Of a stretch of DNA of 64,000 bases, positions 1,527-59,358 are shown in pieces (positions within the stretch are counted from its first letter, which is position 1; the number at the start of each line of letters is the position of its first letter). The notes beneath the pieces are model-generated. The model made no database searches and was not told the DNA's origin. It was given only the letters and a program-made list of their open reading frames with translations. The translations under genes and the position numbers were made by a program. The stretch is from Candidatus Moanibacter sp. (GTDB lineage: Bacteria > Verrucomicrobiota > Verrucomicrobiia > Opitutales > UBA2987), in assembly GCA_965215885.1 (NCBI GenBank), contig CBDCEW010000091.1, forward strand, positions 43,775 to 107,774, read 5' to 3'.

Positions 1527-2693
1527 ATGCAGGGCTCTCGTTACCGATTTATGCGGATGCTGACGGCGGCATGTCTGCCATATAGCATCGCGATAGCTGA
1601 AAGTCCGGACACGGAGAAGGGTGCGCCACCACCTGCCGTAGAGACGGAACCAAAGAGCGTCTACGAGCAGATATGGAGTCTCGCTGAGATCTACAAAGAC
1701 GAGAAGAATTCTCTACTGCAGTCGTTCGTCGTAACTGGCCGCGAACAAATTGATTACGCGACATTTGATGCCGAGCAGGGAGATTACGCAGACTGGGTGG
1801 TACGCAGGACCAGGCTTGGTTTCGAGGTAAAGATGCTTGATTCGATTACGCTGCGTTCAGAGGTGGATCTCGATCTGGAGAATGCGGACCCGCTCTATAA
1901 GCGCCTGACTGATACTTACGTTGCCTGGTCGCCAAGTGATACCTTCACGATGAAGATCGGGAAACAGGGCGTCCGGTTCACCCTGGATGGCGCGACCTCG
2001 TCGAAAAAGCTGCTCACCATCGACCGGAGCAACTTGTCGAATAACCTGTGGTTTCCCCAACAATATATGCCTGGGATAACGATTGGCGGCCGGATGGAAT
2101 CCTGGAATTATCTAACCGGCATATTCTCCGCGGGAAGCGCTTCACGCGAATTCGGTCACTTTGACGGGAGTTACTTCTTGCTCGTCTCGATCGGCTATGA
2201 TTTCACAGATGCCTGGGACGTTGAAGAAGCTCTTTTGTCATTGGATTACGTCTATCAGGACCCGGATGAGAACAACACGTTTACGCGTCCGCTGGGGCAC
2301 ATCGCTTCGCTGAATTTCCGTTACGCCACGGGAATGTGGGGATTCCGGTCGGACTTGACGCTCGGGGAGGGATACCGAGGTCAGAGTGATCTGTTTGGGT
2401 TGGTGGCGATGCCGTCTTACAATATAAGCGGCAAGGTTCAGATTGTGGGGCGTTACACCTATCTGAACAGTTCGCAGGAAAACGGAGTCCGGCTAGCCCG
2501 TTATGAGAACCGAATCGTTTCCGGTCGCGGCGACGAATACAACGAATTCTATCTCGGGCTGAACTGGCTTCTTTACGGCCATTTGCTGAAGTTACAGAGC
2601 GGGATCCAATATGCCACCTTGAACGACGGAGCGAATGACGGTGGAGAATATGATGGCTGGGGCTGGACGACGGGTCTGCGAATCAGTTGGTGA
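1527..2693 (+). CDS. Outer-membrane porin, OprO/OprP-like
   Basis: Signal peptide, VRRTRLG motif, amphipathic beta-strands, terminal W. Confidence 0.8.
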   Translation: MQGSRYRFMRMLTAACLPYSIAIAESPDTEKGAPPPAVETEPKSVYEQIWSLAEIYKDEKNSLLQSFVVTGREQIDYATFDAEQGDYADWVVRRTRLGFEVKMLDSITLRSEVDLDLENADPLYKRLTDTYVAWSPSDTFTMKIGKQGVRFTLDGATSSKKLLTIDRSNLSNNLWFPQQYMPGITIGGRMESWNYLTGIFSAGSASREFGHFDGSYFLLVSIGYDFTDAWDVEEALLSLDYVYQDPDENNTFTRPLGHIASLNFRYATGMWGFRSDLTLGEGYRGQSDLFGLVAMPSYNISGKVQIVGRYTYLNSSQENGVRLARYENRIVSGRGDEYNEFYLGLNWLLYGHLLKLQSGIQYATLNDGANDGGEYDGWGWTTGLRISW

Positions 2694-3142
2694 TCGATGA
2701 TCCTGACGATCAGATAGCTTCAATTATCCGAAACTGTGTTACGAAGCGAATCGTAAGAGAAACTCCCTCTGAACGAGCACCCTCTACTTCAAACATCTGA
2801 AAAACTAACCTGACCGAATTTAGATTTCCGATGATACCTGATTGATCGCAGCGTTTCGACTATCTAAATTCTCGTTATGCTAAGTACCGGGAAAGGAATC
2901 ATCCTCCTGGTCAGTTGTTCAATTCTGGTCATCACTCTCGCTATTGCGTGTCTAATCAGAAAACACCACGTGTCCGCAATCCCTGAAGAAAACCGTGCTT
3001 GTCAGTGAGCCTCGCTCCCCTGATCGAACAGAGACTCGGTTGAGCTTTCCTCCTTCATCGATCGATCACCACAAGGAACAGTGGTATGGCTACTGCATCA
3101 GCGGGATAGGCTCAATCCTTCTCGTAATCGTCCTCGTGATTC

Positions 3143-3949
3143 GGCCACCGCACCTCCCATGACGATTGGCCGCCGCTTGCAAAATGGCAGGAGCGCCCGC
3201 CCCGCGGGATGTGGAATTACCTGTTCTGGAGCGACGACAACGGCAGATCCTGGAGCGAGCCGGTAGAATGTGACGAGGTCGGCGGCGAACCGGGATATAT
3301 CACCGAATTGCACGACGGGACGCTCCTCTATACCCGAACCGAATCGGCGCGTTCGGACTTGCTGAAAGATGGACCATTGCCCTGGGGCGATGTCTATTAT
3401 CGCAATCGGGCCGTGTTTTCCGACGACGGAGGAAAGAGCTGGGAACGAACGTCGCTGATAACCGACGCGCCGTTCCAAAGCGATTGCGAGACCGGCGTGG
3501 TGGAGTTGGAACCCGGTCATCTGCTGGCGGTGACGCGCATCGGGTTCGGTGGCGGTCGCTTCGGGCAGCCCAGCCGGTTCGTGCACAGTTATGATGGCGG
3601 GCGCACCTGGGAGCATCCGACCCTGTCGCCGATCTACGGCCAGCGGGTGATCGTGCGCATGCTGCGGTCGGGCAGGTTGCTCGCGACCTACCGGAATCGA
3701 TGGGGAACGCCGGCGAGCTACGCGTTTGTCTGGGACCCGGACGAGGTTTTTGACTACGAGCCCAGTTCCTACCTTTGGGATGAATCCAGCTGTACCCTGG
3801 ACGACGGTGTTATGACCTTGAAGACAAGCGGAACTTCGGAGACGCAGGCGATATTTGGGTTTTACCCGGCGTTGCGCGAGGAATCCGAAGTGGATCTCAG
3901 CGTCAACATGCGCTCGTCCGCCTCAAACGCATGTTCGGAAAGAAGATGA
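3143..3949 (+). pseudogene. Sialidase/BNR (Asp-box) beta-propeller fragment
   Basis: Three Asp boxes (SDDNGRSW, SDDGGKSW, SYDGGRTW). The frame is open upstream of 3209 only to about 3143, and both ends appear truncated. Confidence 0.65.
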
Positions 3950-4092
3950 TGATAAAGATTATGATGACGATGATGAGGGTATCCGCCCGGTTTGTGAGAT
4001 TTGCGGACTAACTGGTACTCCCAGCCTACCAATTGAAAAGCGTCGAATCGATTTCCTCCTTGGGATGGCCTATTTTTCGAATGCACGTCGCC

Positions 4093-5527
4093 ATGGAATC
4101 GGTTACCTATCACAGATCCCTTCCGTTACTCGACGAATACGAGGTGATCGTTTGCGGGGGCGGACCCTCCGGTATCCCGGCGGCGCTGGCTGCGCGGCGC
4201 GCCGGGAAGAAGACGTTTGTTGGTTGAAGGTACGGGCCAAATGGGCGGGGTGGGGACGTCGGCGGGCGTGTCGCACCTGCTGGCCAGCCGAACGAACGAC
4301 AACCAGGTCTGCGTGGCGGGAATTTTCAAGGAGATTACTGAGGAACTGGCGGCGCGGGGCGGAGCCGTCAATCCCGACACCATCGAGACGCCGGGCAAAT
4401 TCAATCCTCACGGTTGGACGGGGAAGGTGAGCAACCTCACCTACGGCGTTCCGTTCGACCCCATTCAGATGGCGATTCTTTTGGATGAGAAGATGCTCGA
4501 GGCGGGGGTTGATGTGTTGTACTTTACGAGCGTCGTGGACGTCCTTCCGGATCCTGGCGGCGGTGAACGACTGGGCGGGATAGTGGTCTCGAACAAATCG
4601 GGGCTGCAGGCGGTTACGGGAAGGGTGTTTGTCGACGCCACGGGAGACGGGGACGTGGCGGCGCGAGCCGGGTGCGAAGTCGTCAAGGGGCGCGCCGAAG
4701 ACGGCCTTATGACACCGGCTTCATTGATCTTTCATGTCGAAAATGTGGATCAGGACGCGCTTTCCGAATACATCCACGACACCGAGGAGAATCGGTTCCG
4801 GAATTTGATTGAAGACCTTCGCCGGCGCGGTGAATGGGATTTCCCCTACGAGATCTTTATCACCGTGCAATTGACGGACAAGGGCACACTCATGGTCAAT
4901 ACGACCCGCATCTGCGACGTTGACGGAACGGATGGCCGTTCGATTTCGCGGGGCATGATGCAGGGCAGGCGGGAGGTTAACCGGCTCTTCGATCTCATGA
5001 AGCGACACTTTCCGGGATTCGCGAAGGCGCGCATCAAGCTGGTGGCGCCGGTGCTGGGAATCCGCGAAACGCGGCGAATCGTGGGCGATTTCGTGATGAC
5101 GGTCGAGGACCTCGTTGAAGGCCGCAATTTCCCGGACACGATTGGATTCAGTGGTTATGGGTGGGACCTGCCGGACCCGAAAAAACCGAGTATCCAGACA
5201 ATGCACGGCATAGAGCGGAAGAGGAACTACACGCCCATACCGTACCGCGTGATGGTTCCTCAGCCAATAAAGAACATAATCTGCCCGGGCCGGGCAATCA
5301 GTGTGGAGCGGCACGTCCTCGGGCCGTTGCGGGAACAGGGCGCGTGTTACGCCATGGGCCACGCCGCCGGACTGGCGGCTGCGATGGCGGCTGAAAACGG
5401 AACTGCTTTTGCCCGGATCGACGTGGGAGCATTGCGGGACCGCCTCCGGAAGGAAAATGCGAAAGTCGATTGGGACCAGGAGATCCGGCCCACGTGTTGG
5501 TCGGTTGATCGGGTGAATTCGGGGTGA
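4093..5527 (+). CDS. FAD-dependent oxidoreductase (FAD_oxidored-like), +1 frameshift near 4216
   Basis: VIVCGGGPSG in the 4033 frame joins LVEGTGQMGG...DATGDGD...RETRRIVG in the 4217 frame. Confidence 0.85.
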
Positions 5528-5551
5528 GGGGAATGCGAAAAAGGACAAGCG

Positions 5552-7562
5552 ATGGATAAAAACGATTTCGACCTCGTCGTAGTGGGCGCCACGCCCGGGG
5601 GAATCTCCTGTGCGGTCGCGGCGGCTCGGGCCGGTTTGACGGTCCTATTGACAAACTGGAACGAGCGCCCGGGCGGATTTTTCGTCAATGGCGGCAGTGT
5701 CCTCGACACAATATACGAGGGCAACCGCGCTCCACTTTTCGCGGAGTTCCTGGAGCGCATTCGGGACTTCAACAAATGCAAATACGGCGAAGACTCGGAC
5801 CGCTACCGCGAAACGTTTTACGGTGACCGGCTCGATTCGAGCGCCCGTCCGCGTATTCGCAATGAGGCGGCGGCAACGGTGTTCCGCGAGTGGATTGAAG
5901 CGGAACCGAAGTTGTCGCTTTTGAGCGGGGTGATTCCCGTAGCCGTGGAACGGTCCTGCAGGCACTTGACGGCGGTCTTCCTGAGCGAGTTGGCGAATGG
6001 GAAGCGCCGACGGTATTGCGGACGGATCTTCGTGGATGCCACCTACGAGGGCGACCTCGCGGCGGTCGCGGGCGTGGAATACCGGGTGGGAAGGGAGTCC
6101 CGGCAGGCATTCGGCGAGCCCCACGCAGGCAAAATCTGGCGCGATTACGTGGAGGGGAGAAGACGGACACTTCCCCCGGGAGGCGGCCGAGGGGCTGATT
6201 AACACGCGGATATTCCGCCTCACCAATAAGCAGATATTCGCAGGCAGCACGGGTGAGGGCGATGGCGCGATTCAGGCCTATAACTATCGGATGGCCCCCA
6301 CGAATGACCCGGAGAAAAGGCGCCCCATCACGCGTCCGGACAATTACGACCGGGAACGTTATGCCGGGATTACGGGGAGCGAACAGGCCAGATTGGAGAA
6401 ATCCTTTCCCATCAAATCCGACGCCCTTTACAACGGGGTGGAGAAAGTCGGGATGGGCGGGCAATATCACTGTTACCCAGGTGGGAACCATGAATATCCG
6501 GAAGCTGACTGGCAAGGACGCCGCGAAATCCTGAAGGCGCACGCGGACCACATGCACGGGTACTTTTATTTTATTCAGAACGACGACTCGGTTCCGGAAG
6601 CCATCCGGGAGCGGAATCTGCAGTGGGGGCTGGACAAGACCCTTTATCCGGATAACGACAACATCCCGTATGAAATCTACGTCCGGGAAGCACGTCGCAT
6701 CCGGGGCCGTTATGTCTTCCGGGAACAGGATGCCACACTGGCGGAGGGGTATGGCCGGGCGCCCGTGCACAGCGATTCCGTCGGAGTCACCGAGTGGCCC
6801 ATGGATTCCCACGATTGCACTACCGAGATGGTGCCCGGAAGCCTCCACGACGGTGTCCTGTTGCTGACCGAAGAGACACGCCCGGGACAGATTCCCTATC
6901 GCTCCCTCTTGCCGAGGGATATCGACAACCTGATCGTACCGGTTTGCCTCTCGGCCACCCACGTGGCCTGGGGCACGGTCCGGCTGGAGCCGGTGTGGAT
7001 GCCCTTGGGGGAGGTCGCCGCCCACGCGGCCGCGCTCTCGCTTCAGCTCGGAACAACGCCCGGAGAACTCGACCCGGAGCACCTCCAATTCCGCCTGGTG
7101 GAAAATCGGATCATGGTGTCGTTCTTCAACGAGTTCGATATGGCTACGGAAGAGCCGTGGGTGCCCGCTGTTCAGTATCTCGGAACGAAGGGGTTCTTCG
7201 ACGAATATGATGCGCGGCCGGAGGCGCCTCTGACTGGTCCGGTGGCGCGGGAATGGGCGCACGCTTTTGCCGATTTATGCCAGGGAAATTGCGATTCGCA
7301 CGCAGTCGCAGGAGCGGTTCACCGGGTAGCCGGCGATTCCGATCCGGCCGTTAGTGTTGCCGAATTTCTGACTCTCCTGGAAAAAGAGGCGGCTTATCGC
7401 GGGTTGCCGGATTCGCTCGTAGGTCGTGAGGCGGAGGCGATAGGATGGAACGAGGAGGAATCTGTTACGCGCAAAGACGCCTGCCGGTTGATCTTTGCTC
7501 TCATTCGCCGGATTCTTTACCCGGGTGAATCGACGATTAGAGAGCCCATTATTGAAAGGTAA
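5552..7562 (+). CDS. FAD-dependent oxidoreductase, frameshifted near 6140-6160
   Basis: VVVGATPGG, DATYEGD, VREARRIRG, VRLEP. Collinear with the paralogues at 18161 and 32007. Confidence 0.85.
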
Positions 7563-10387: not shown

Positions 10388-10792
10388 TGATTTCTTAGCG
10401 CATTAAATTCGGAACCAAATTGGAAGGTCCTTCCGTAGTGAAAAGATTTGAACAGAAGGAAACAGAGATAAACGAAGAGGGATGAGAGAAGAGGAGTAAC
10501 CCACGGATGGCTCCGCTGTACCACGGATGGAAAGAGTGAAATTGGAAAGCGAAAGGGAGCCCTTCATTCATTCGTTGCTGACTCATCTTCCCGCTCAGTG
10601 GGATTGCGGCTTTGCGTGAGATTTTTTCCCTTTTCCTCTCCGTAAACAGATTGGGTTTATCCTCCAGGAGCAATGGGACGATTTCGGGAAGCTGACGATG
10701 CTCAAGCGGGGCCGCAAGGCGGCCGACTCACTAACGGGGGAACTGAGCCATCTTGAAGAGGGCCTGTCGATGGATTCACTGCCTTGACTCTA

Positions 10793-10996
10793 TCGGGTAC
10801 AAGCCACAACTGGTTCGCAGCGAAAACGGTTTTGTCACCAGCCTGATCGTACCGCAAGGCAATGCGGCAGACTCCATTGAGCTGGCGCCGGCCATCGGCG
10901 ATTCGATCAAGCGCACCGGTGTCATTGCTGAACTGATCAGCACCGATGACGGATATGCTTCGGCGAAGGGGCGCAAGGAGGTGCTGAGCATGGGGG
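10793..10996 (+). pseudogene. Internal DDE transposase fragment
   Basis: IGYKPQL...PQGNAADS...STDDGYAS, typical of the second catalytic Asp region of IS5/ISNCY-like enzymes. Confidence 0.65.
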
Positions 10997-11269
10997 TAAA
11001 CGAAGTCGTGCGCTTCGCGGCCGTAGCGCCAGTTGACCAGGGTGAGCGCGAAAATGATGACAAACAAAACCCAGGCGATAGCGGATCCGTAGGCAAGGTC
11101 CAGCCGTTCAAAGCCTCTGTCCTGTTCAAAATAGCTAAAGGTTTGACTCTAAACGAAGTCGTGCGCTTCGCGGCCGTAGCGCCAGTTGACCAGGGTGAGC
11201 GCGAAAATGATGACAAACAAAACCCAGGCGATAGCGGATCCGTAGGCAAGGTCCAGCCGTTCAAAGCCT
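10997..11269. repeat. Exact 120-bp direct repeat of the permease 3' end
   Basis: 10997-11116 equals 11150-11269, with a 33-bp spacer. Confidence 0.95.
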
Positions 11270-12255
11270 TGTTGGTAGATATAGTAAACGAGGGTGGTGG
11301 TGGTGCCCGGACCGCCGCCGGTCATGAGACGGACCGCTTCGAACCCGCCCTGTAAACCGCCGATGACTCCGGTAACAACGAGAAAGAACGTCACCGGGGC
11401 GAGTTGCGGGATCGTGATGTAGCGGAGTTTCTGGAGCCAGTTGGCGCCGTCGATATCCGCCGCTTCGTAGAGTTCCGGCGGGATATTAGCGATACCGGCG
11501 AGGTAGAGCAGCATGTGTGTGCCACCGATGCCGGCCCACAGGCCCATGATCATGATCGCCTCTCGGGCGCCGAGGCCGAAGCCGCCGTTATTGAAATAGT
11601 CGGGCAGCGGGAGGAAACCGAGGAGCGATTTCGTGCTGCGCAGCCAGGTGGGCATGTCCACGTCGAGACCGAAAAAGCCGGTGATAGATCGAAGGACCAT
11701 GTTGATAAATCCAAAATCCGGGTTGTAGAGCTGCGCCCAGAGCAGAATCGTGGCGGCGCCGGCGGTGAAATGAGGAAGGTAGAAGACCGTGCGGTAACTG
11801 ACCGAACCGAAGCGAAATCCCAGAGCGATGATCAGACCGAGCGCGCAGAGGAAATAACCAACGTCCGCGTAGCCGGCGAGGGCCAATCCGGCGGTGGAGA
11901 ATAATGCGATCGCCAGACAGATGATGGCGGAGCTCCGGTTCCGGGAGGGATCCCGAAATTCGAACTTCTCGCTCAAGTAGACCGCGGCAAGAAGGGAACC
12001 GAAGATCGACAGGGGCAAGGCGGAAAGTAGATAAATCGTGTTAAAGAAATAAAAGAGGACATAGCGATCTTGAAAGAGTCGCTTGTAATTCTCCAGACCG
12101 ACAAACTCCAGCGGCACGGAAACCTGCAGGCTCCATGTGGAAAAGCTGCCGAGAAAACTCATGATGACCGGCACTGACGTAAAGGCCAGAAACCCAAGGA
12201 AATTCGGGGCCAGGAACCCGATGGCGATAAGCGTTTCTTTGCTGCGAGTGGTCAT
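11149..12255 (-). CDS. Carbohydrate ABC transporter permease (MalF-like)
   Basis: FLAPN, GLENY, YEAADIDGA, TGGGP motifs. Confidence 0.9.
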   Translation of the reverse strand: MTTRSKETLIAIGFLAPNFLGFLAFTSVPVIMSFLGSFSTWSLQVSVPLEFVGLENYKRLFQDRYVLFYFFNTIYLLSALPLSIFGSLLAAVYLSEKFEFRDPSRNRSSAIICLAIALFSTAGLALAGYADVGYFLCALGLIIALGFRFGSVSYRTVFYLPHFTAGAATILLWAQLYNPDFGFINMVLRSITGFFGLDVDMPTWLRSTKSLLGFLPLPDYFNNGGFGLGAREAIMIMGLWAGIGGTHMLLYLAGIANIPPELYEAADIDGANWLQKLRYITIPQLAPVTFFLVVTGVIGGLQGGFEAVRLMTGGGPGTTTTLVYYIYQQGFERLDLAYGSAIAWVLFVIIFALTLVNWRYGREAHDFV

Positions 12256-25335: not shown

Positions 25336-26965
25336 TCCCGCTGAGCGCATACGCGTAAACCTTATTTTCGCAACTTAGTCAGATTCAAAGACTTGCGAGG
25401 TATTTTGCGGCGGAGTATGAGGGTGTCTCTATCCTCGAGGTTCCACTCCATTTGTTCGCCCTTTTCTATTTGCTTCGTTTCGACCACAGCGGTGAGGAAA
25501 TTCGCAGTTGAGCGAGTGCATTTTGGCCGGGTTATCTTCTCTACTTTTACCGTCTACCCCATTTTTTTTCACTTTGGCAGCATTTTATACTGTACATTCG
25601 TTCATATATAGGATTTATCCTTCGGATGCAAAGTATAAAAAAAGCTGATTGTATCCGTCAAACCTTCCGTAAGTTGAACCTCACAGCCCTCGCTAAACAG
25701 AGTGGTTTTAGAGAGAGGAAATCGCGCAAGATCTCCCCTCTGAACTTTGTTTTGGCTTTGCTGGCGATGGCTTCTAAGGGGGCCTTGTCCCTTGGCAAAG
25801 AAGCCGAGCTTATTGGATTCTTAGCCAACCGCACCATTTCCAGACAAGCGGTCCAAAAGTGCGCCAAAAAAGCCACCGCTTTTATGACCTTAGTGCTCCT
25901 GAGGCTTTTAGAACTTAAAGCTTATGGGCCTGTGGGCAGAGCTGTTCCAAATTGCATGAGGAGCTTTGAACGGGTTCTCATTGCCGACAGCACTTCGATT
26001 GGCTTGCCTAAGGTCCTGGCCCCCTTCTTCCCCGGAGCGTCCAATCAGACAGGCTCCAAACAGGCTCAACTGAAGATTCAGGCCTATTACGATCTGCGCA
26101 ATGAATCCTTCGTTGACTTCAGCCTCAGTAGCTTCCGAAAAAACGATCAGGCTGCTTCCAAAGACATTCTCGCTCTCGCTCAACCCAACGACTTGATCCT
26201 GCGCGACTTAGGCTATTTTGTCCTCGATGTCTTTAAGCAACTCGATCAGCGCGGCTGCTTCTTTGTGAGTCGTTTGAAAACCGGCACTTGCCTTTTAGCC
26301 AACGAAGGCGATGAAGAGCTCGATCTACGCAAACTTTTACGTGGCCAAAAGCTTCTCGATATGCCCGTTCGGGTGGGTAAAAAAGCCAAGCTTCCGGTTC
26401 GTCTGATCGCCGTCAAACTCCCTCAGAAGGTGGCCCATAAACGCCGCCGCGAGCATAGACAAAACCGCGACAATAGACTTCGATATACCAGCCGCACCAG
26501 CTTCCTTCTCGGTTTCCAAATCTTTATTACAAACCTCCATCAGAAAGACTTTAGCCCTAAGCAGATTCTGAGCTTTTACGGGCTTCGCTGGCGCATCGAA
26601 ATTTTCTTTAAGGCCTTTAAGCAACATCTTAATCTCGGTCAGGTCAAAGAGACTACTCCCTACCAGGTTGAGCTTCTTATCTACGCCCGTCTCATCCTCA
26701 TTACCCACTTACTCAACTTCGTCTATGGTCCCCTTAGACACTATTCGAATACCAGTTTGTCCTCTCCTCTGAGTATCCTTAAATTCTCCTACTGGTTTGG
26801 CTTCTTTGCTCCCTACTTCTTCATCCTCTCTCACATTCCCAAAGATCAGATCATCCCCCGATGGCTCAAACAAATCCCCAAACACTGCACCTATGAAAAG
26901 CGTTCTCGACTTGATTTCCTCTCTTGTTTCTTCTCCTTAGGTTAACGCAAATGCGCCCAGCGGGA
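25336..26965 (+). mobile_element. IS4-family element, copy 1 (1630 bp)
   Basis: TIRs TCCCGCTGAGCGCAT / ATGCGCCCAGCGGGA. Near-identical to 52201-53829. Confidence 0.9.
25626..26945 (+). CDS. IS4-family transposase (439 aa)
   Basis: ADST, RDLGY, and Y-x2-RW-x-IE-x2-FK-x2-K (YREK) motif. Confidence 0.95.
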   Translation: MQSIKKADCIRQTFRKLNLTALAKQSGFRERKSRKISPLNFVLALLAMASKGALSLGKEAELIGFLANRTISRQAVQKCAKKATAFMTLVLLRLLELKAYGPVGRAVPNCMRSFERVLIADSTSIGLPKVLAPFFPGASNQTGSKQAQLKIQAYYDLRNESFVDFSLSSFRKNDQAASKDILALAQPNDLILRDLGYFVLDVFKQLDQRGCFFVSRLKTGTCLLANEGDEELDLRKLLRGQKLLDMPVRVGKKAKLPVRLIAVKLPQKVAHKRRREHRQNRDNRLRYTSRTSFLLGFQIFITNLHQKDFSPKQILSFYGLRWRIEIFFKAFKQHLNLGQVKETTPYQVELLIYARLILITHLLNFVYGPLRHYSNTSLSSPLSILKFSYWFGFFAPYFFILSHIPKDQIIPRWLKQIPKHCTYEKRSRLDFLSCFFSLG

Positions 26966-27161: not shown

Positions 27162-28248
27162 TTGTCCCTCATGAAGGGCGATCACGCAATGCCGGTTGGG
27201 ATCATCGGATCCGGGTTCATGGCGCGGACTTACGCGGAGTGCCTTGCGCGATATGTCGAGGGCGTCGAGCTTCGGGTTGTGGCGGGTGGGAGTCGGGCTC
27301 CAGGATTGGCCCGCGAGTACGGAATCGAGCGACTCGACAGGGCCGAGGAGGTGTTTGATAGGGAAGACATCGAGGCAGTGATCATCGCCACACCGGAGAC
27401 GATTCACCCGGTGCAGGCGATTGCGGCGGCACAGGCCGGCAAGCATGTTCTTGTAGAAAAGCCCTTGGCGCCGACCCTCGAACAGTGTAACGCCGTGATT
27501 GACGCGTGCCGGAATTCGGGGGTGCGCCTGATGCAGGTTAAGCACTGTCGCTTTCGCGAAGTGCATCGGCGGGCAATCGAATTACTGCGCGAGGGAAACC
27601 TTGGGCCTGTGCGGCAGATACATAATCGTACAATGGTGCCGGTCCAATCATCGGAAGCGGGCGTGAGAAAGAAGCCGTTTTACCTCGATCCTTCTGGCGG
27701 TGGGCTTTTCATGGGATGCTGCACCCACAATTTCGACCTCGTCCGATGGTTGGCGGGCAGCGAGCCGAAACGGGTATTTGCTACGGTCACTTCATACGGT
27801 GACCATGCCATCCCGGAATTGACATCGATGGCGCAGATAGGCTTCGCCAATGAAGCGAAGGCTGCAGGTATGGATAACGGCGGAACTGCCGGATCCTGCG
27901 TTTGCGCAGAGCTTGTTCCGTACTGAGCTTGTTTGTGAAAACGGCGTCCTCGATCTTGACGGGGTAGGGCAGATTCAAGTCGGACAGGACGGTGAATGGC
28001 GTAGCATCTGGGAAGTAGCGAGGTTTGATCCGCAAGATCCCCTGGATCCGCGGAGCCTGGAGGGCTTCTCGGCCATGTTGCAGGAGTTCATCGACGCCAG
28101 TCGTGAAGACCGTGAACCATTAGTGACCGGAGCGGATGGTCGGGCTGCGGTAGAACTCTGCCTGGCGGCGCGTGAGTCGGCGAAAGCAGGGGTGTGCAGT
28201 CGATTTGCCGTTGGGTGGTTAACCGAGAGCATGCGATTCACGCATTAG
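27162..28248 (+). CDS. Gfo/Idh/MocA oxidoreductase, frameshift near 27860
   Basis: GIIGSGFMA, GKHVLVEKP, H-x2-D. C-terminus in ORF 27850..28248. Confidence 0.85.
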
Positions 28249-28391
28249 CGCAGAAACCGTAACTATCCCCCTCCTCAAGATCCTCCGGGCTCGCCCCGGA
28301 GAGTCTCAGGTTTTCTGGCTAAAGGGACCGAACCTACCTTTCCTCAAGATCCTCCGGGCTTGCCCCGGAGAGTCTCAGGTTTCTTAGCTAC
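28245..28391. repeat. TTAG-hairpin repeat cluster 1 (one partial plus unit, two minus units, 69-bp period)
   Basis: AAGATCCTCCGGGCTYGCCCCGGAGAGTCTCAGGTTT at 28277 and 28346. The last unit overlaps the tnpA stop codon. Confidence 0.9.
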
Positions 28392-29239
28392 AGCCGCTCC
28401 CACCGATCGAGATATCTCTTTAACGCTCGCGAATTCAGGTCCCCATACCCGCCGACGTAAGCACTTGGCGTAAAGAGACGATCTACTCCTGCTTGAATAA
28501 CGTGCTCGCTATGCCTTTCCCACATTACCTCTTCAGCAAGGTTCATCAATTCGGACACGATTTTTTCCGGTGCAATTGAAGGATGTCCCCGCATCGCCAA
28601 ATGCACGTGATCCGGCAAAAAGGACACCTTGAGGAGCTTAAACTGATTCTCCTGTTCAGCTTTCTGCCAGCATCGGGTCACAGCAGGACCCGATTCCGAA
28701 CCGAAAATTCCCTTTCGGGCTGTTGTTGCGATGACAATGTGGTAACGAAGACAAGTCACTGCATTCGGATTGAGCCGCGATTCATCGCCTGCCTCTTCCG
28801 GGAACTCCCGTTGAAAGACAGGCGGTATGGCTCTGTCTTCATAACCGTGATGGCGGCTCTGCTTGGAAAGGTATCGGATTACTTGCGACTTTATACTCTT
28901 CCCGGATGTGGCTGCGAAATAGCCGCGTGAGAAGAGACGGGATTTCTCCCGTACTTCGTGGTCTGTCCGTAGGAATTTGCTGACTCGGCCCTTCAGTTTA
29001 CTCGCTGTTGCGGATACGGTATCGGTTGGTTTCAGGCTCACTAGCGCTAGGCAGTTTCTTTCATCGGCGGAGAATTCGAGAAGGTGAATTCCGTAAGGAT
29101 CCAGTAGTTTCTCGATGCGTTCTTTGTCGAGAGATTTCAGCTCGGACACGGACTTACGGCGATGCGTGTTCCACCGCAGGTAGCAGTGAATAGAGTAAGC
29201 GAAGGTTAATGATTCGGCTGTGTAGGGAGTACGGTGCAC
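28388..29239 (-). CDS. tnpA: IS200/IS605-type HUH (Y1) transposase with two tandem TnpA domains, 5' end abutting an IS
   Basis: Domain 1: LKGRVSK, LFSRGYF, VIRYLSKQ. Domain 2: YHIVIAT, PDHVHL, LFTPSAY, LKRYLDRW. Confidence 0.85.
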   Translation of the reverse strand: MHRTPYTAESLTFAYSIHCYLRWNTHRRKSVSELKSLDKERIEKLLDPYGIHLLEFSADERNCLALVSLKPTDTVSATASKLKGRVSKFLRTDHEVREKSRLFSRGYFAATSGKSIKSQVIRYLSKQSRHHGYEDRAIPPVFQREFPEEAGDESRLNPNAVTCLRYHIVIATTARKGIFGSESGPAVTRCWQKAEQENQFKLLKVSFLPDHVHLAMRGHPSIAPEKIVSELMNLAEEVMWERHSEHVIQAGVDRLFTPSAYVGGYGDLNSRALKRYLDRWERL

Positions 29240-29245
29240 AAACTT

Positions 29246-31619
29246 CAGACCTCACTATATTGCCCCTCTAAAGGCACTATGCAATCGCAAGTTTAAATCC
29301 CTATTTTTTGCCCAGTCGGAAGATGATTCTTCGGCCTGAACCGTCGGGCATCAGTAAGGGCTTCTCATTGAGAGTTTGCAGATACTCAAGCACCACCGCT
29401 TGCACCCGAGGGGGATAAGTTGCGGTGGGGAATAAATGCGCTTCGACCGCACAGCCCCTCTCTATAAGAACGCCGTCACTGTGAGTCAAATTGCGAAACA
29501 GATCGTGGTCGTCACGATAGTTGTTGTAGCGAGCTTTAAAGGGTTCGAGCTGCTTGTAGAAGCTGTTACGGGCGAAGATTTTCAAGGCATCCATGAGGGA
29601 CTTGTTAGCGGTGTCCAGGCGGACATAGTTTTCATCAATGAGGCGCTGCAGCCTCGAGCATTCGGTGTCGATTTGCTCCAGTTCGAGTTGGAGGGCTTTG
29701 AGGGCCTGATCGAGTCGACGGATCTTTTCGCCCCTTGAGGCGCTTTTGCCCGGGTGGGCATGCTCGGCCAGGAGCAGTCTTTTCAATTCTTCGGTGCATT
29801 GCTGTTTTTGCTTCAGGAGGGCTTTGGCGGCACCGCTTTTCTCCTGCTTCTCCTCAAGGTGTTGGGCTAATCGCTTGTAGTGGACGGTGCGATAAGAGGT
29901 GATCTGATTAATCCCAAAGTGCTTATCGAGGTATTTGAAGTCATTCTCCTGAATCCAGCGACTGAACATCCCTTTGATTACCTCTTCATTTCGGGCCTGC
30001 TGATCGGTCGCCAGGATGCTCACGGTAATGGTTCGATTTTTTGGATTGGTCGCCTCCACGATCCACTGCACCAGTTGAGGATTTTTCTTCCAGGGGCCCC
30101 GCTGATAGCGAAGATGATACTCCTGGAGATCTTCGGCATGGTTGCGCGCGCGCTGCAGGCGCAACTGCCCGTCGATCCGTTGGAGGGGCTGGGCGCTGGC
30201 CTTGTAACCTTTTTCCCAGGTAATGATTTCGAGTTGAGGATGCTCCACGATGGCTTCGTAAAACCACTCCGCGGCGATCGCCCGGTCCACGTAAATGCTC
30301 ACCTTCTTATCAGCCGGCAACTGCACCAGCTCGAGCATCGCTTCGCAGTTGGGGATAAACCGTTCCCTTATATCCTCATAGTTGTCAGTGCTCGCAAAAT
30401 AGACCGGATAGCCCTTGAGGGTATGAATAAAATCGCTGTGGAGCGCTTTGTCGGCCAGACGGATACCCGGACACCATCCCGCCAGCACCTTGCTCATTCC
30501 GGTGTAATGTTTGGTGTGCGGATCATAATAAAAGCTCTCTTCATCCGAAGCATTCAGGCCCCTCGCGTTCACTCTGAGGATCTCTCTTAAAAGCCCTTCA
30601 TCGGCCAGGGCGCTAAGGCTTTGGCGTTGCAGATAGGGGGTATACAGGACTCGCCCGATGAGTTTTTGCAGGTCTTCGAGATCGAGCAGTTTGCTCTGCT
30701 CGATATTGACCGCGGCCAACAACCCGCAAGCCACCCATTGTTTCAAAAGCCAGCCCTCTTCGCGATCAATCTGAGCGACTTCTCTGAGCGCGGCACTGAA
30801 CAGAAGTACTCCCAGGTGCCGATACCATTGCACCGCTTCGGAGCTCTCCCTCGAAAAATCGGGAGACTCCTTGCGATTGTCCCCTTCGCTTTCGGGGCTA
30901 TTTTCTGCTTCTTGCTCCTGTTCGTCCCTCCCCGAGTCCTCCGGGCAATCCCAGGGAGTCTCCCGATTTTGCGCCCTCTCGGCTTCGGCCTCCTTTGCCC
31001 GGGCCTCTTTAAGCTCCTTAAAGACAGGGCGCAAAGTTTCCCCACTGAGGTTAACTCCGAACACCTCCTCGATCTCCCCCCGTATCTTCTTGCTGTAGCC
31101 ATACCGACTCTCCCCATAGATCTGCCCGAAGCGCACCCGCCCAAAACTCCGGATTTCCCTCGTCAATTTGCGATGAGCGCTGCGTCCCGCCAGCACTCGC
31201 GCTAAGGTCTCGGCATCTCCGCTTTGAAGCGCCTCCCCCCACCGCTTCATCGTTTTGGGGTCAACCTCAAATTGCTTCTCTAAGCGCCCTTTCTTCAACC
31301 CCGCATTGTAGAGGCGCCCCACCAATAGCTTGAATTCAACTTGCTCCCGATCGTCCTCTACGACTTCAAAAAGCTCATGCCCGTAATAGACGTGCAGTTT
31401 GCCTTCGCTCAGATCCCGATAGACCGTGATCGAGGGATTACCCTTGTCCACTCCAAGGATGCACTGTAAGAAGGTCTCTTCTTTGACGGTAGGTTTCTCC
31501 ATTTTTCTTCGAATTTGATGGTTCGAAGATGAAGCCTACCGTTTTCTTTAGCTCTTAAAAGCCGGGAATTGTATCTGCGATTGCCCCCTGCCCGCCAACC
31601 CGCATGATAGCGAGTTCTG
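29246..31619 (-). mobile_element. Unclassified DDE IS, copy 1 (2374 bp)
   Basis: TIRs CAGACCTCACTAT / CAGAACTCGCTAT (11/13). Flanks AACTT and TGGTT do not match. Confidence 0.9.
29301..31502 (-). CDS. Large putative DDE transposase (733 aa)
   Basis: FYYDPH, IYVDRA, RWIQENDFK. N-terminal HTH-like region and coiled coil. TCG>TAG relative to copy 2 removes the last 8 aa. Confidence 0.85.
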   Translation of the reverse strand: MEKPTVKEETFLQCILGVDKGNPSITVYRDLSEGKLHVYYGHELFEVVEDDREQVEFKLLVGRLYNAGLKKGRLEKQFEVDPKTMKRWGEALQSGDAETLARVLAGRSAHRKLTREIRSFGRVRFGQIYGESRYGYSKKIRGEIEEVFGVNLSGETLRPVFKELKEARAKEAEAERAQNRETPWDCPEDSGRDEQEQEAENSPESEGDNRKESPDFSRESSEAVQWYRHLGVLLFSAALREVAQIDREEGWLLKQWVACGLLAAVNIEQSKLLDLEDLQKLIGRVLYTPYLQRQSLSALADEGLLREILRVNARGLNASDEESFYYDPHTKHYTGMSKVLAGWCPGIRLADKALHSDFIHTLKGYPVYFASTDNYEDIRERFIPNCEAMLELVQLPADKKVSIYVDRAIAAEWFYEAIVEHPQLEIITWEKGYKASAQPLQRIDGQLRLQRARNHAEDLQEYHLRYQRGPWKKNPQLVQWIVEATNPKNRTITVSILATDQQARNEEVIKGMFSRWIQENDFKYLDKHFGINQITSYRTVHYKRLAQHLEEKQEKSGAAKALLKQKQQCTEELKRLLLAEHAHPGKSASRGEKIRRLDQALKALQLELEQIDTECSRLQRLIDENYVRLDTANKSLMDALKIFARNSFYKQLEPFKARYNNYRDDHDLFRNLTHSDGVLIERGCAVEAHLFPTATYPPRVQAVVLEYLQTLNEKPLLMPDGSGRRIIFRLGKK

Positions 31620-31622
31620 TGG

Positions 31623-31817
31623 TTAGCTTAGAAACCTAATAATCCCCAGGGCAAGCCTGGGGGATTTGAAAATATGGGGTCTCCCGAATTAGCGAAGGAA
31701 ACCTAACCATCCCCGGGACGAGCCCCGGGGATTGCCCTTCCGACTACCGGCACCGACCCAACCCATTCTCAAAGATCCTCCGGGCTTGCCCCGGAGAGTC
31801 TCAGGTTTTCCGGCTAA
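31623..31817. repeat. TTAG-hairpin repeat cluster 2 (two plus units, one minus unit)
   Basis: TTAGCTTAGAAACCTAATAATCCCCAGGGCAAGCCTGGGGGAT at 31623, a variant at 31689, and an inverted unit ending CTAA at 31817. Confidence 0.9.
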
Positions 31818-34053: not shown

Positions 34054-34320
34054 TTAGCATAGGAACCTAACTATCCCCAGGGCAAGCCTGGGGGATTTGA
34101 TGTTGTGAGGGAGGACTCCTGAAGTAGCGAAGGTAACATAAGCATCCCCGGGACGAGCCCGTGGGATTGCCCTTCCGGCTACCCGACCGACCCAACCCAC
34201 TCCAAAAGATCCTCCGGGCTTGTCCCGGAGAGTCTCAGGTTTTTCGGCTGCCCGGACCGATCGACCCACTCCAAAAGATCCTCCGGGCTTGTCCCGGAGA
34301 GTCTCAGGTTTTTCGGCTAA
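34054..34320. repeat. TTAG-hairpin repeat cluster 3 (two plus units, two minus units)
   Basis: Collinear with cluster 2, with one extra 69-bp unit. Confidence 0.9.
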
Positions 34321-34331
34321 AGAACTCAGAG

Positions 34332-34764
34332 TTACTCAAACAGCTCAAAACCGGCGATCAGGAAGTGATGATCAAAGCTGAAAGCGCCGGTGATTCCCAA
34401 TTTCTTCATAACGGCGAAGGAAACGCCATCGACCATGCTGATATCCTGCCCCCGATATTGTGCCATTAGATCGAGGCCGGCCGTCTCATCTTTTCGCGAT
34501 GAGTCGTGAATCACAAAGGAGCCCGATTGGTAAATAGACCGGATTCTCTTAACCGCAACATCGGCGCTGCTTCTCCGCGAAAGGAGGGTTGCTGTCTCAA
34601 CCAGGACCAGATTCGTCGTCACCAGGGGTATCGCTTCTTTCCTGATTGATGACCAGCGTGACTGCGCATCATCGAAATATTGATCACGCTTCAGGTAACT
34701 GAGGTTAATATTGATCACGCTTCAGGTAACGAGCAAGAAAAGCGCCTGTGTCTACGAAGATCAT
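34332..34764 (-). pseudogene. vapC: PIN-domain toxin disrupted by a 31-bp insertion
   Basis: MIFVDTGAFLA from ATG 34764, VLVET, SMVD, FSFDHHF. Duplication 34676-34699 / 34707-34730 gives a stop after codon 19. Confidence 0.85.
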
Positions 34765-41278: not shown

Positions 41279-41378
41279 GGCAATTGCGTGGATCCTTTGT
41301 TTTTCACGATTTTTGGAACTACGAATAGCGCGAATCTGCGCAAATGGGGAATGAATCCGTCCCGGTCGGACCGAAGCT

Positions 41379-43754
41379 CAGACCTCACTATATTGCCCCT
41401 CTAAAGGCACTATGCAATCGCAAGTTTAAATCCCGATTTTTTGCCCAGTCGGAAGATGATTCTTCGGCCTGAAACCGTCGGGCATCAGTAAGGGCTTCTC
41501 ATTGAGAGTTTGCAGATACTCAAGCACCACCGCCTGCACCCGAGGGGGATAAGTTGCGGTGGGGAATAAATGCGCTTCGACCGCACAGCCCCTCTCTATA
41601 AGAAACGCCGTCACTGTGAGTCAAATTGCGAAACAGATCGTGGTCGTCACGATAGTTGTTGTAGCGAGCTTTAAAGGGTTCGAGCTGCTTGTAGAAGCTG
41701 TTACGGGCGAAGATTTTCAAGGCATCCATGAGGGACTTGTTAGCGGTGTCCAGGCGGACATAGTTTTCATCAATGAGGCGCTGCAGCCTCGAGCATTCGG
41801 TGTCGATTTGCGCCAGTTCGAGTTGGAGGGCTTTGAGGGCCTGATCGAGTCGACGGATCTTTTCGCCCCTTGAGGCGCTTTTGCCCGGGTGGGCATGCTC
41901 GGCCAGGAGCAGTCTTTTCAATTCTTCGGTGCATTGCTGTTTTTGCTTCAGGAGGGCTTTGGCGGCACCGCTTTTCTCCTGCTTGTCCTCAAGGTGTTGG
42001 GCTAATCGCTTGTAGTGGACGGTGCGATAAGAGGTGATCTGATTAATCCCAAAGTGCTTATCGAGGTATTTGAAGTCATTCTCCTGAATCCAGCGACTGA
42101 ACATCCCTTTGATTACCTCTTCATTTCGGGCCTGCTGATCGGTCGCCAGGATGCTCACGGTAATGGTTCGATTTTTTGGATTGGTCGCCTCCACGATCCA
42201 CTGCACCAGTTGAGGATTTTTCTTCCAGGGGCCCCGCTGATAGCGAAGATGATACTCCTGGAGATCTTCGGCATGGTTGCGCGCGCGCTGCAGGCGCAAC
42301 TGCCCGTCGATCCGTTGGAGGGGCTGGGCGCTGGCCTTGTAACCTTTTTCCCAGGTAATGATTTCGAGTTGAGGATGCTCCACGATGGCTTCGTAAAACC
42401 ACTCCGCGGCGATCGCCCGGTCCACGTAAATGCTCACCTTCTTATCAGCCGGCAACTGCACCAGCTCGAGCATCGCTTCGCAGTTGGGGATAAACCGTTC
42501 CCTTATATCCTCATAGTTGTCGGTACTCGCAAAATAGATCGGATAGCCCTTGAGGGTATGAATAAAATCGCTGTGGAGCGCTTTGTCGGCCAGACGGATA
42601 CCCGGACACCATCCCGCCAGCACCTTGCTCATTCCGGTGTAATGTTTGGTGTGCGGATCATAATAAAAGCTCTCTTCATCCGAAGCATTCAGGCCCCTCG
42701 CGTTCACTCTGAGGATCTCTCTTAAAAGCCCTTCATCGGCCAGGGCGCTAAGGCTTTGGCGTTGCAGATAGGGGGTATACAGGACTCGCCCGATGAGTTT
42801 TTGCAGGTCTTCGAGATCGAGCAGTTTGCTCTGCTCGATATTGACCGCGGCCAACAACCCGCAAGCCACCCATTGTTTCAAAAGCCAGCCCTCTTCGCGA
42901 TCAATCTGAGCGACTTCTCTGAGCGCGGCACTGAACAGAAGTACTCCCAGGTGCCGATACCATTGCACCGCTTCGGAGCTCTCCCTCGAAAAATCGGGAG
43001 ACTCCTTGCGATTGTCCCCTTCGCTTTCGGGGCTATTTTCTGCTTCTTGCTCCTGTTCGTCCCTCCCCGAGTCCTCCGGGCAATCCCAGGGAGTCTCCCG
43101 ATTTTGCGCCCTCTCGGCTTCGGCCTCCTTTGCCCGGGCCTCTTTAAGCTCCTTAAAGACAGGGCGCAAAGTTTCCCCACTGAGGTTAACTCCGAACACC
43201 TCCTCGATCTCCCCCCGTATCTTCTTGCTGTAGCCATACCGACTCTCCCCATAGATCTGCCCGAAGCGCACCCGCCCAAAACTCCGGATTTCCCTCGTCA
43301 ATTTGCGATGAGCGCTGCGTCCCGCCAGCACTCGCGCTAAGGTCTCGGCATCTCCGCTTTGAAGCGCCTCCCCCCACCGCTTCATCGTTTTGGGGTCAAC
43401 CTCAAATTGCTTCTCTAAGCGCCCTTTCTTCAACCCCGCATTGTAGAGGCGCCCCACCAATAGCTTGAATTCAACTTGCTCCCGATCGTCCTCTACGACT
43501 TCAAAAAGCTCATGCCCGTAATAGACGTGCAGTTTGCCTTCGCTCAGATCCCGATAGACCGTGATCGAGGGATGACCCTTGTCCACTCCAAGGATGCACT
43601 GTAAGAAGGTCTCTTCTTTGACGGTAGGTTTCTCCATTTTTCTTCGAATTTGATGGTTCGAAGATGAAGCCTACCGTTTTCTTTAGCTCTTAAAAGCCGG
43701 GAATTGTATCTGCGATTGCCCCCTGCCCGCCAACCCGCATGATAGCGAGTTCTG
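41379..43754 (-). mobile_element. Unclassified DDE IS, copy 2 (2376 bp) with 5-bp target duplication
   Basis: Same TIRs as copy 1. AAGCT at 41374-41378 and 43755-43759. Confidence 0.92.
41410..43637 (-). pseudogene. Transposase copy 2 with two +1 homopolymer insertions
   Basis: Extra A near 41473 and 41604 relative to copy 1, otherwise near-identical. Confidence 0.8.
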
Positions 43755-46850: not shown

Positions 46851-47243
46851 TTAGCTTAGAAGCCTAACGATCCCCAGGGCAAGCCTGGGGGATTCGAGAG
46901 TCTCAAGTTTTTCGGCTACCAAGACCGATCCAACCTTTCCAGAAGATCCTCCGGGCTCGCCCCGGAGAGTCTCAGGTTTTTCGGCTACCAACGCCGCTCC
47001 AACCATTCCAGAAGATCCTCCGGGCTCGTCCCGGAGAGTCTCAGGTTTTTCGGCTACCAACACCGATCCAACCATTCCAGAAGATCCTCCGGGCTCGCCC
47101 CGGAGAGTCTCAGGTTTTTCGGCTACCAACGCCGCTCCAACCATTCCAGAAGATCCTCCGGGCTCGCCCCGGAGAGTCTCAGGTTTTTCGGCTACCAGCA
47201 CCGATCCAACCATTCCAGAAGATCCTCCGGGCTTGACCTGGAA
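46851..47243. repeat. TTAG-hairpin repeat cluster 4: tandem array with 69-bp period
   Basis: One plus unit at 46851, then minus units starting 46943, 47012, 47081, 47150 and a degenerate one at 47219. Confidence 0.95.
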
Positions 47244-58942: not shown

Positions 58943-59358
58943 AAGGGGTCAGGCTTTTTATTCATGTGTTTCATGTTATCGCTAAGAGTTGGATTGGAAT
59001 TCCTCATGCCTCGTTCGGTGCGGGGTCTCTTTCGTTGTGCCATATATCACGAGGTGAACTGTGGCATTGTGCCTCCGGCAACTACTGCCTGAAATAGGTA
59101 CCATCAGGATCTGTTCACGGTACATCTCTCCTGCGTTGCGTTCGAGAAGACGCTCGTCGGAGCCTTTTAAGAGAAAGAACAATTTTTTGAACCGGAGCGA
59201 GCAGCTAATTCGCCACCCGAGAATCCGTGCTTATTCGAAAGAACAATTTTTTGAACCGGAGCGAGCAGCTAATTCGCCACCCGAGAATCCGTGCTTATTC
59301 GGTACGTCGCATGATGCGATTGCTTCAAGTAACACTTAGATAATAAGCCTGTCCCCTT
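58943..59358 (+). mobile_element. Relic of a REP-associated tyrosine transposase locus with 19-bp inverted ends
   Basis: AAGGGGTCAGGCTTTTTAT versus AAGGGGACAGGCTTATTAT (17/19). MPRSVRGLFRCAIYHEVNCG at 59006. Confidence 0.55.
59173..59300. repeat. Exact 64-bp tandem duplication
   Basis: 59173-59236 equals 59237-59300. Confidence 0.95.

Follow-up and report, generated by a model that had tools for sequence, protein, structure and literature searches.

A single-copy tandem Y1 transposase with unlike halves and associated hairpin repeats in Candidatus Moanibacter sp.

Overview

A 64,000-nucleotide stretch of the Candidatus Moanibacter sp. genome (NCBI GenBank assembly GCA_965215885.1, contig CBDCEW010000091.1, positions 43,775 to 107,774 of the forward strand; the whole stretch is called the window below) carries a gene, tnpA, whose product is built from two Y1 (IS200-type) transposase domains in tandem. 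Y1 transposases usually pair two catalytic motifs in the same domain, an HUH metal-binding motif and a Tyr(-x3-Gln) motif. In this protein that pairing is absent: the HUH is found only in domain 2 and the Y-x3-Q only in domain 1, and the same asymmetry runs through the family. The gene is present once in the genome, hairpin repeats flank it, and the two occur together in related genomes. On this evidence the protein is probably a single-chain HUH pseudo-dimer with one composite active site, and a RAYT-like enzyme associated with repeats of the repetitive extragenic palindromic (REP) kind.

Domain architecture and its conservation

Matches of the whole protein to Pfam Y1_Tnp (PF01797; E 1.8e-27, 96.3 bits, cutoff 23) and to the NCBIfam IS200 model NF033573 (104.4 bits, cutoff 55) each fall in two stretches. 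The halves also match when scanned alone: against Y1_Tnp the first (residues 1-140) reaches 43.6 bits with an E of 3.7e-11 over profile positions 5-121, and the second (residues 141-283) reaches 56.8 bits with an E of 3e-15; each half covers nearly the whole 121-position profile. The halves are too diverged for direct comparison (half-against-half BLASTP gave a non-significant E of 0.16), but hhalign matches family-based profiles of domain 1 and domain 2 to each other with 97.9% probability (E 5e-13, 114 columns). In that alignment R61-N62-C63-L64 of domain 1 lies opposite D210-H211-V212-H213 of domain 2, and Y123 lies opposite Y276. A preliminary description of this DNA, made from its letters alone, had proposed two IS200-like TnpA domains in tandem, the first with RNCL in place of DHVH and with Y-x3-Q, the second with HVH and Y-x3-W. 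The profile matches bear out the tandem architecture, since each half by itself passes the Pfam cutoff, and the motifs and their coordinates (Table 1) proved correct. The reading frame is open and full-length relative to the homologues, which align from the first residue of the N-terminus, MHRTPYT.

Homologues came from a word-indexed search, which gave 95 relatives of about 285 amino acids, and from an exhaustive phmmer search of 1.84 billion representatives, which gave 300 proteins at E <= 0.001 and 32 at E <= 1e-30. All collected proteins of 265-370 amino acids were pooled; 121 of these 126 carry both domains, and the counts that follow are over those 121. The helix motif of domain 1 is close to invariant (Y123 in 118, Q127 in 120, H130 in 116 and H131 in 119), as is the HUH of domain 2 (H211 in 118, H213 in 116). 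The second Tyr helix is less constrained: W280 is found in 81 homologues, and Y276 is replaced in 17 (F in 10, S in 3, A in 2 and T in 2). Where domain 1 would have its HUH, position 62 is D, E, N or Q in 104 homologues and position 64 is R or L in 93. His is outside the six commonest residues at both positions, and no H-x-H was found among the short database fragments that BLASTP aligned across them.

Alignments at two depths give the same picture. Among 43 close sequences (alignment A1) there are 23 invariant columns, which include Y123, Q127, H131, H211 and H213. A deep alignment of 28 sequences, reaching down to 19% identity, leaves Y123, Q127, H167, H211 and G266 invariant, and in its distant branch Y276 has become F, A or S while Y123 and Q127 stay unchanged. 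The asymmetry of HUH and Tyr is conserved across the family and is no product of decay. The homologues neither keep both HUH motifs nor show random loss, and the claim of a conserved asymmetry in the preliminary description holds.

The same data refute the idea that the gene arose by chance fusion of two neighbouring tnpA genes or is a pseudogene in decay, which now has next to no probability. In favour of that idea, unusually long TnpAs have been set aside as "gene fusions or annotation errors" in the text of Quentin et al. (2018; PMC6006769), and in this genome an insertion sequence (IS) abuts the gene. Neither fusion by accident nor decay would be expected to leave 121 collinear two-domain homologues in several phyla with the same asymmetry, 23 invariant columns, an open frame, a matching N-terminus and a confidently predicted fold.

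A search with domain 1 alone among proteins of 77-245 amino acids returned one fragment and identified no single-domain ancestor. Split genes, one like domain 1 and one like domain 2, were suspected in two genomes (G420 and G173) and were rejected: the open reading frames (ORFs) encode ordinary IS200 TnpAs of one domain that have both motifs, and one of them adjoins a tnpB-like ORF.

Structural model and the putative composite site

An AlphaFold2 model of the two-domain chain, built on alignment A1, has a pLDDT of 89.8 and a pTM of 0.88. The helix of domain 1 (117-125) lies in blocks with a mean pLDDT of 92, and the last two 10-residue blocks, with the domain-2 helix and Y276, have means of 64 and 50. 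The best Foldseek matches are the TnpA proteins of ISDra2 and IS608 (2xqc_D, E 3.4e-7, TM 0.85 relative to the target). The IS608 TnpA chain 2vju_A places 128 of its 129 residues on residues 150-281 of the model, swapped helix included (Z 11.4, root-mean-square deviation 2.4 A), and the E. coli RAYT structure 4er8_A reaches a Z of only 5.5. This structural match to IS608 and ISDra2 TnpA covers domain 2, and the fold of domain 1 rests on the sequence profiles. A two-copy homodimer prediction with the same alignment (score 0.00, mark 0.42) is uninformative on oligomeric state either way.

In the IS608 and ISDra2 TnpA dimers the Tyr helix of each subunit is swapped onto the HUH site of its partner, and in IS608 the Gln four residues past the Tyr is a metal ligand. 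Messing et al. (2012; PMC3479197) describe the obligate dimers of IS200/IS605 transposases as interwoven, with a domain-swapped catalytic-Tyr helix, and name T115 and P73 as determinants of the dimer that the monomeric RAYT lacks. The equivalents are kept here: at T111, 97 of the 121 homologues have T and 19 have S, and in alignment A1 P220 never varies and P71 is conserved to 90% or more. Together with the fold match and the two-domain model, these Thr and Pro residues fit an IS608-like pseudo-dimer. If the helix is swapped as in IS608 and ISDra2, the protein would have one composite site, made of H211/H213 from domain 2 and Y123/Q127 from domain 1, and one dead site. Y123 would then be the nucleophile, and the presence of two unlike halves in one chain favours one such site, as far as sequence can say.

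The arrangement could also be read the other way round, with domain 2 as a self-sufficient RAYT-like monomer that uses Y276 in cis and domain 1 as a DNA-binding or regulatory appendage. E. coli TnpA-REP does act as a monomer (Messing et al., 2012, PMC3479197), and Y276 is retained in most homologues. We regard this as very unlikely. Judged by conservation, the residue that stays is the domain-1 Tyr: Y276 is present in 97 of the 121 homologues against 118 for Y123, it is lost to F, S, A or T in the 17 homologues noted above and across the distant branch, and Q127 persists in 120. Domain 2 also has a Trp where IS608 has its metal-ligand Gln, and its helix is the part of the model with the lowest confidence. 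A domain 1 without a catalytic role, moreover, would not be expected to keep Y-x3-Q-x2-HH nearly invariant.

Hairpin repeats and their association with the gene

The repeats that accompany the gene share a unit made of GTAGC, about 5 nt, AACCT, 6 nt, a 7-bp GC-rich stem, an RCRAG loop, the complementary stem and GAT. A scan for the core (stem, loop, stem and GAT) found 50 sites in the 6.36-Mb assembly and none in the reversed genome, and 48 of the 50 sites have an AACCT-like element upstream. The stems vary in a compensatory manner (CCCCGGC at 15 sites, CTCCGGG at 12, CCCCGGG at 8, CCCCAGG at 7 and CCCCACG at 4), and among 28 units from four genomes (alignment A3) five of the seven stem pairs show changes on both sides. 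Within the window the units lie in extragenic clusters, in opposed orientation and in 69-nt head-to-tail arrays. In single-stranded DNA (ssDNA) the two units just 3' of tnpA each form a hairpin of 7 bp closed by a 5-nt loop; the z-scores, -1.7 to -2.1, are modest.

Some other explanations of the arrays could be put aside. A CRISPR-like array is ruled out by the constant 69-nt period and by spacers that are related to one another, and an Rfam scan of positions 26000-48000 at E up to 0.1 gave no family matches. A perfect two-copy tandem repeat elsewhere in the window (59173-59301, 64-nt unit, 100% match) is unrelated to the REP family. Two ORFs that run through repeat arrays, one of 102 amino acids (34161-34469, plus strand) and one of 120 (46851-47213, minus strand), are probably artefacts of the repeats.

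The link between repeat and gene extends to other genomes. A covariance model, R1, was trained on units from this genome (G000) and from three others (G006, G215 and G280). Among 41 related genomes it gives 55 hits in G000 and 121 in G006 and is silent in the remaining 39; within this set the full-length gene is likewise confined to G000 and G006. As in RAYTs, the repeat family is thus found among the 41 only where the gene occurs, by a model trained on these genomes' own repeats. The orthologue in G006 is 57% identical to the protein described here, with three inverted units just upstream of the gene and one direct unit overlapping its 3' end, and a G006-specific pattern finds 79 sites against none in the control. 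G215 has 35 pattern sites against none in the control and 75 R1 hits, and a complete genome (that of locus L080, from the cultured Pirellulaceae strain SH449) has 29 hits, some clustered near the gene and some dispersed.

Public genomes with the gene belong to Planctomycetota, Acidobacteriota, Victivallales/Lentisphaerae, Heliobacteria/Clostridia, Anaerolineales and Armatimonadetes. At 46 of the 49 loci compared there, at least one hairpin with a 7-bp stem and an RCRAG loop lies within 400 nt of the gene, and the density of hairpins falls from 5.5 per kb near the gene to 0.21 per kb at distances above 1 kb; a reversed control yields 1 hit. The layout recurs as well, with direct units downstream at 38 of the 49 loci and inverted units upstream at 32. 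What varies across phyla is the stem, with the GTAGC tag, the loop and the spacing all conserved, and GC hairpins with RCAAG loops are found at seven of the nine distant-branch loci examined.

Individual loci add detail on how protein and repeat may correspond. Two paralogues in one genome (L068 and L071, 51% identical) have different repeats, CCACCGG stems with a GTAGT tag at one and CCCCAGG stems with a TTAGCC tag at the other, which suggests cognate protein-repeat pairs. At L052, units at 2511-2889 (minus) and at 3875-4411 (plus) share stem and loop and differ in both flanks (..CCTAAcgat-stem..GATT versus ..CGTTAgcat-stem..CATT), and at L080 and L043 the arrays on either side of the gene likewise differ in both flanks with the same stem and loop. 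This difference in two flanks resembles that between the left and right end sites of an IS and may mean that recognition or cleavage takes place in two contexts.

Mobile element or domesticated enzyme

A tblastn search of this genome gives one hit for tnpA. In a sample of 401 genomes of the phylum, end-to-end matches occur in 14 genomes at 15 places, with one place in 13 of the 14; three further genomes have matches that start inside domain 1. Four public genomes have two loci each, and the two copies are only 51-55% identical in three of these pairs and 96% identical in the fourth. No record among 72,556 plasmids or 50,697 phages covers at least 80% of the protein. The multiple, near-identical copies that mark IS200/IS605 elements are not seen for tnpA, and its copy number and mobility match those of a domesticated RAYT more than those of an IS.

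The gene could nevertheless be an autonomous IS200-like element, with the flanking hairpins as its own ends and the dispersed hairpins as derivatives like miniature inverted-repeat transposable elements (MITEs) or as scars. Hairpins do stand on both sides of the gene at most loci. The patchy spread over phyla and the lack of synteny between G000 and G006 imply that gene and hairpins move between genomes together, and the pair of copies with 96% identity and the genomes in which hairpins are found only beside the gene (G280, G194 and G434) would be expected of such an element. We consider it unlikely all the same. The gene occurs once in this genome and at one place in 13 of the 14 phylum genomes with an end-to-end match, no tnpB lies nearby, and no plasmid or phage record reaches 80% coverage of the protein. 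The ends of IS200/IS605 elements lie on one strand, yet the hairpins here are arrayed, and at 32 of the 49 loci those upstream are inverted relative to those downstream. Same-genome copies, too, are mostly far more diverged than the 99.4% identity given for IS200 subclass 1.1 in the text of Quentin et al. (PMC6006769).

A comparison with the known systems places the protein between two of them. It shares sequence family and fold with IS200/IS605 TnpA (IS608 and ISDra2; PDB 2vju, 2vjv, 2xqc and 2xm3), along with the HUH, the Y-x3-Q, the Thr and Pro of the dimer and, if the prediction of its substrate is right, hairpin DNA substrates. Those transposases are homodimers of chains of about 130-150 amino acids with two equivalent composite sites, whereas this one is a single chain with unlike halves and, as we infer, one site; their genes are multi-copy and often lie beside tnpB, whereas this gene is single-copy and has none; and here the flanking hairpins stand in arrays, mostly inverted across the gene. 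With RAYT/TnpA-REP (E. coli YafM, PDB 4er8) the gene has in common its single copy, its flanking inverted extragenic palindromic repeats, repeat families that number from tens to over 100 copies and are confined to carriers of the gene, clusters like bacterial interspersed mosaic elements (BIMEs), inverted pairs, and a repeat with a GTAG-containing tag. Its genomic behaviour is like that of a RAYT or REPtron, but it differs from RAYTs in sequence and architecture. The protein fails the RAYT model NF047646 (26.2 bits, cutoff 80). Its Tyr motif is Y-x3-Q (YLSKQ), and that of class 2 RAYTs is Y-x3-NP in the description of Quentin et al. (2018; PMC6006769). RAYTs are one-domain monomers and the GTAG-type tag adjoins the stem in the E. 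coli REP as presented by Messing et al. (2012; PMC3479197), whereas this protein has two domains and its GTAGC lies 16 nt from the stem. The suggestion in the preliminary description of an independent route to a RAYT-like domesticated nuclease is strengthened by this combination of a single-copy, hairpin-flanked gene that co-occurs with its repeats and an IS200-type sequence outside the RAYT model.

Two other groups of Y1 proteins come close on particular points. Subclass 1.2 of Quentin et al. (2018; PMC6006769) has the signature Y---Q--HH, which corresponds to Y123, Q127, H130 and H131 of domain 1, and is likewise low-copy without IS behaviour; the link rests on the motif as it appears in that description. 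As described there, members of subclass 1.2 are single-domain proteins of 148 amino acids with DH[IV]H and the Tyr motif together, mostly from Cyanobacteria and Bacteroidetes, and the description reports no repeats for them. Class 3 TnpA-Y1 proteins are likewise found in Planctomycetes and Acidobacteria according to the same source, where they are given 178 amino acids, one domain, NHVH, Y----Q and a hairpin foot CnGA, none of which applies here. Table 1 of that paper contains no two-domain subclass. A description of a tandem or pseudo-dimeric Y1 TnpA was not found in open-access papers or on bioRxiv, and the supplements of Quentin et al. (Figures S1 and S3, Table S1) could list some. Existing annotations call the homologues "IS200/IS605 family transposase", "putative transposase" or "RayT".

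Several observations weigh against a RAYT-like pseudo-dimer that spreads its repeats. The trans geometry of the composite site is deduced from the IS608 and ISDra2 dimers, and the retention of Y276 in 97 of 121 homologues makes some role for that residue conceivable. The filter behind alignment A3 demands a paired stem, so that its 98.5% pairing arises by construction and only the compensatory changes count; the silence of R1 in the other relatives is in part a matter of its sequence specificity. Three of the 49 loci have no hairpin within 400 nt. R1 hits one place in G194, one in G280 and no place in G072 or G350; genome-specific patterns place the hairpins of G280 and G194 only beside the gene, and in G434 all eight hits adjoin it, so the spread of repeats is not universal. 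The gene has a scattered distribution over phyla and lacks synteny between G000 and G006, which means that it moves or is transferred at some rate. Lastly, expression in this genome may be affected by the IS, which lacks a target duplication and stops 6 bp short of the tnpA start codon.

Proposed mechanism

Under the preferred reading, a single-chain pseudo-dimer with one composite site, the family would have begun with an ancient tandem duplication of an IS200/IS605 Y1 TnpA followed by complementary loss. Domain 1 would have lost its HUH metal site while retaining the helix that bears the Gln and the putative nucleophile, Tyr, and domain 2 would have kept its HUH while its own Tyr helix degenerated. 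The most likely binding target of the protein is the GC-rich hairpin, whose RCRAG loop is conserved. Once bound, the protein would cut and religate ssDNA of the 46-69-nt unit (GTAGC, AACCT, stem/loop/stem, GAT), and units would thereby spread as dispersed copies, inverted pairs and head-to-tail arrays. Such cleavage and mobilisation of the repeats by the protein are suggested by their association, and with one site the enzyme would presumably nick one end at a time.

A more specific version is more tentative, and we hold it possible with somewhat less than even confidence. In it, the family would be a domestication of Y1 transposases independent of, and separate from, class 2 RAYTs; the enzyme would be an obligate single-chain "heterodimer" with one composite site; each half would bind one hairpin; and the single Tyr would move 64-69-nt units sequentially at GTAGC. 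The two halves might pair repeat flavours from opposite sides of the gene, for example those with CCTAA..GAT and CGTTA..CAT around the same stem at L052. Sequential cleavage and strand transfer at the GTAGC tag would explain why head-to-tail arrays have a constant period.

Genomic context

The coordinates of the gene, its domains and motifs, the repeat clusters and the inserted IS are collected in Table 1.

Table 1. Features of the tnpA locus and of related repeats in the window (positions count from the first nucleotide of the window)
Feature	Position	Strand	Remarks
Tandem Y1 (IS200-type) TnpA gene	28388..29239	-	283 amino acids; GTG start; single copy in genome
Domain 1	28820..29239	-	residues 1-140; Y1 fold without HUH, invariant Tyr helix
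R61-N62-C63-L64	29048..29059	-	equivalent of D-H-V-H in domain 1; HUH lost
Y123-L-S-K-Q127	28859..28873	-	putative catalytic Tyr and metal-ligand Gln; followed by H130-H131
Domain 2	28391..28804	-	residues 146-283; Y1 fold with intact HUH
H211-V212-H213	28601..28609	-	HUH metal-binding motif of domain 2
Y276-x3-W280	28400..28414	-	degenerate Tyr helix of domain 2, Trp in place of Gln; codons of Y276 28412-28414 and of W280 28400-28402
Two REP units, head-to-tail	28277..28391	-	directly 3' of the gene; TAG stop of tnpA is the TAG of the first GTAGC
REP cluster	31623..31817	two + units, one - unit	+ units (31623-31668, 31690-31735) face the - unit (31772-31817); beyond the inserted IS
REP cluster	34054..34320	two + and two - units	69-nt period; extragenic, after an ORF ending at 34037
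REP cluster	46851..47195	one + and four - units	69-nt period; between divergent ORFs
Unrelated high-copy IS	29246..31619	-	733-amino-acid transposase at 29301-31502; ends 6 bp upstream of the tnpA start

The neighbours of tnpA are the transposase of this IS, a split GFO/IDH/MocA oxidoreductase, a DDE transposase and an FAD oxidoreductase, so the statement in the preliminary description that no tnpB is adjacent stands. The IS is about 2,374 bp long and has about 40 near-identical copies in the assembly, a second one in the window at 41378-43754, and its transposase has a weak match to Pfam Transposase_29. A 5-bp target duplication flanks all 13 of the 13 other copies checked and is missing from the copy at tnpA (AACCA versus AAGTT), which suggests recombination between IS copies. 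The position of its end means that the native promoter region of tnpA is gone. The 733-amino-acid gene was considered as a partner of tnpA and rejected: it belongs to an IS of about 40 copies and is absent from the other loci compared, including those in G006 and in the phylum.

The oxidoreductase (27162-28248, plus strand) is split into overlapping ORFs at 27162-27926 and 27850-28248, likely through a frameshift, as a pseudogene or by an assembly error. Further along, at 25626-26945 (plus strand), a 439-amino-acid DDE_Tnp_1 (IS4-like) transposase (E 1.5e-26) belongs to another, different IS near the locus. The tnpA locus of G006 (L006) has two DDE transposase ORFs of identical length, 492 amino acids, at 4808-6286 and 10637-12115. 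Insertions seem to be drawn to the repeat-rich locus in G000 as well as in G006.

Implications

For annotation, repeat arrays such as these yield spurious ORFs. For the study of the enzymes, the family offers a natural test of the trans active site of the IS608 type, as it has one HUH and one Tyr-Gln in different halves of the chain in several phyla. A Y1 enzyme with a single site could show what such chemistry achieves, a capability that Messing et al. (2012; PMC3479197) left open, in their discussion of it, for the monomeric E. coli RAYT. The repeat unit described here (GTAGC, AACCT, 7-bp stem, GCAAG loop, stem, GAT) is a candidate DNA substrate for a previously undescribed family, and its association with a transposase outside the RAYTs suggests that domesticated transposases that spread repeats arose more than once.

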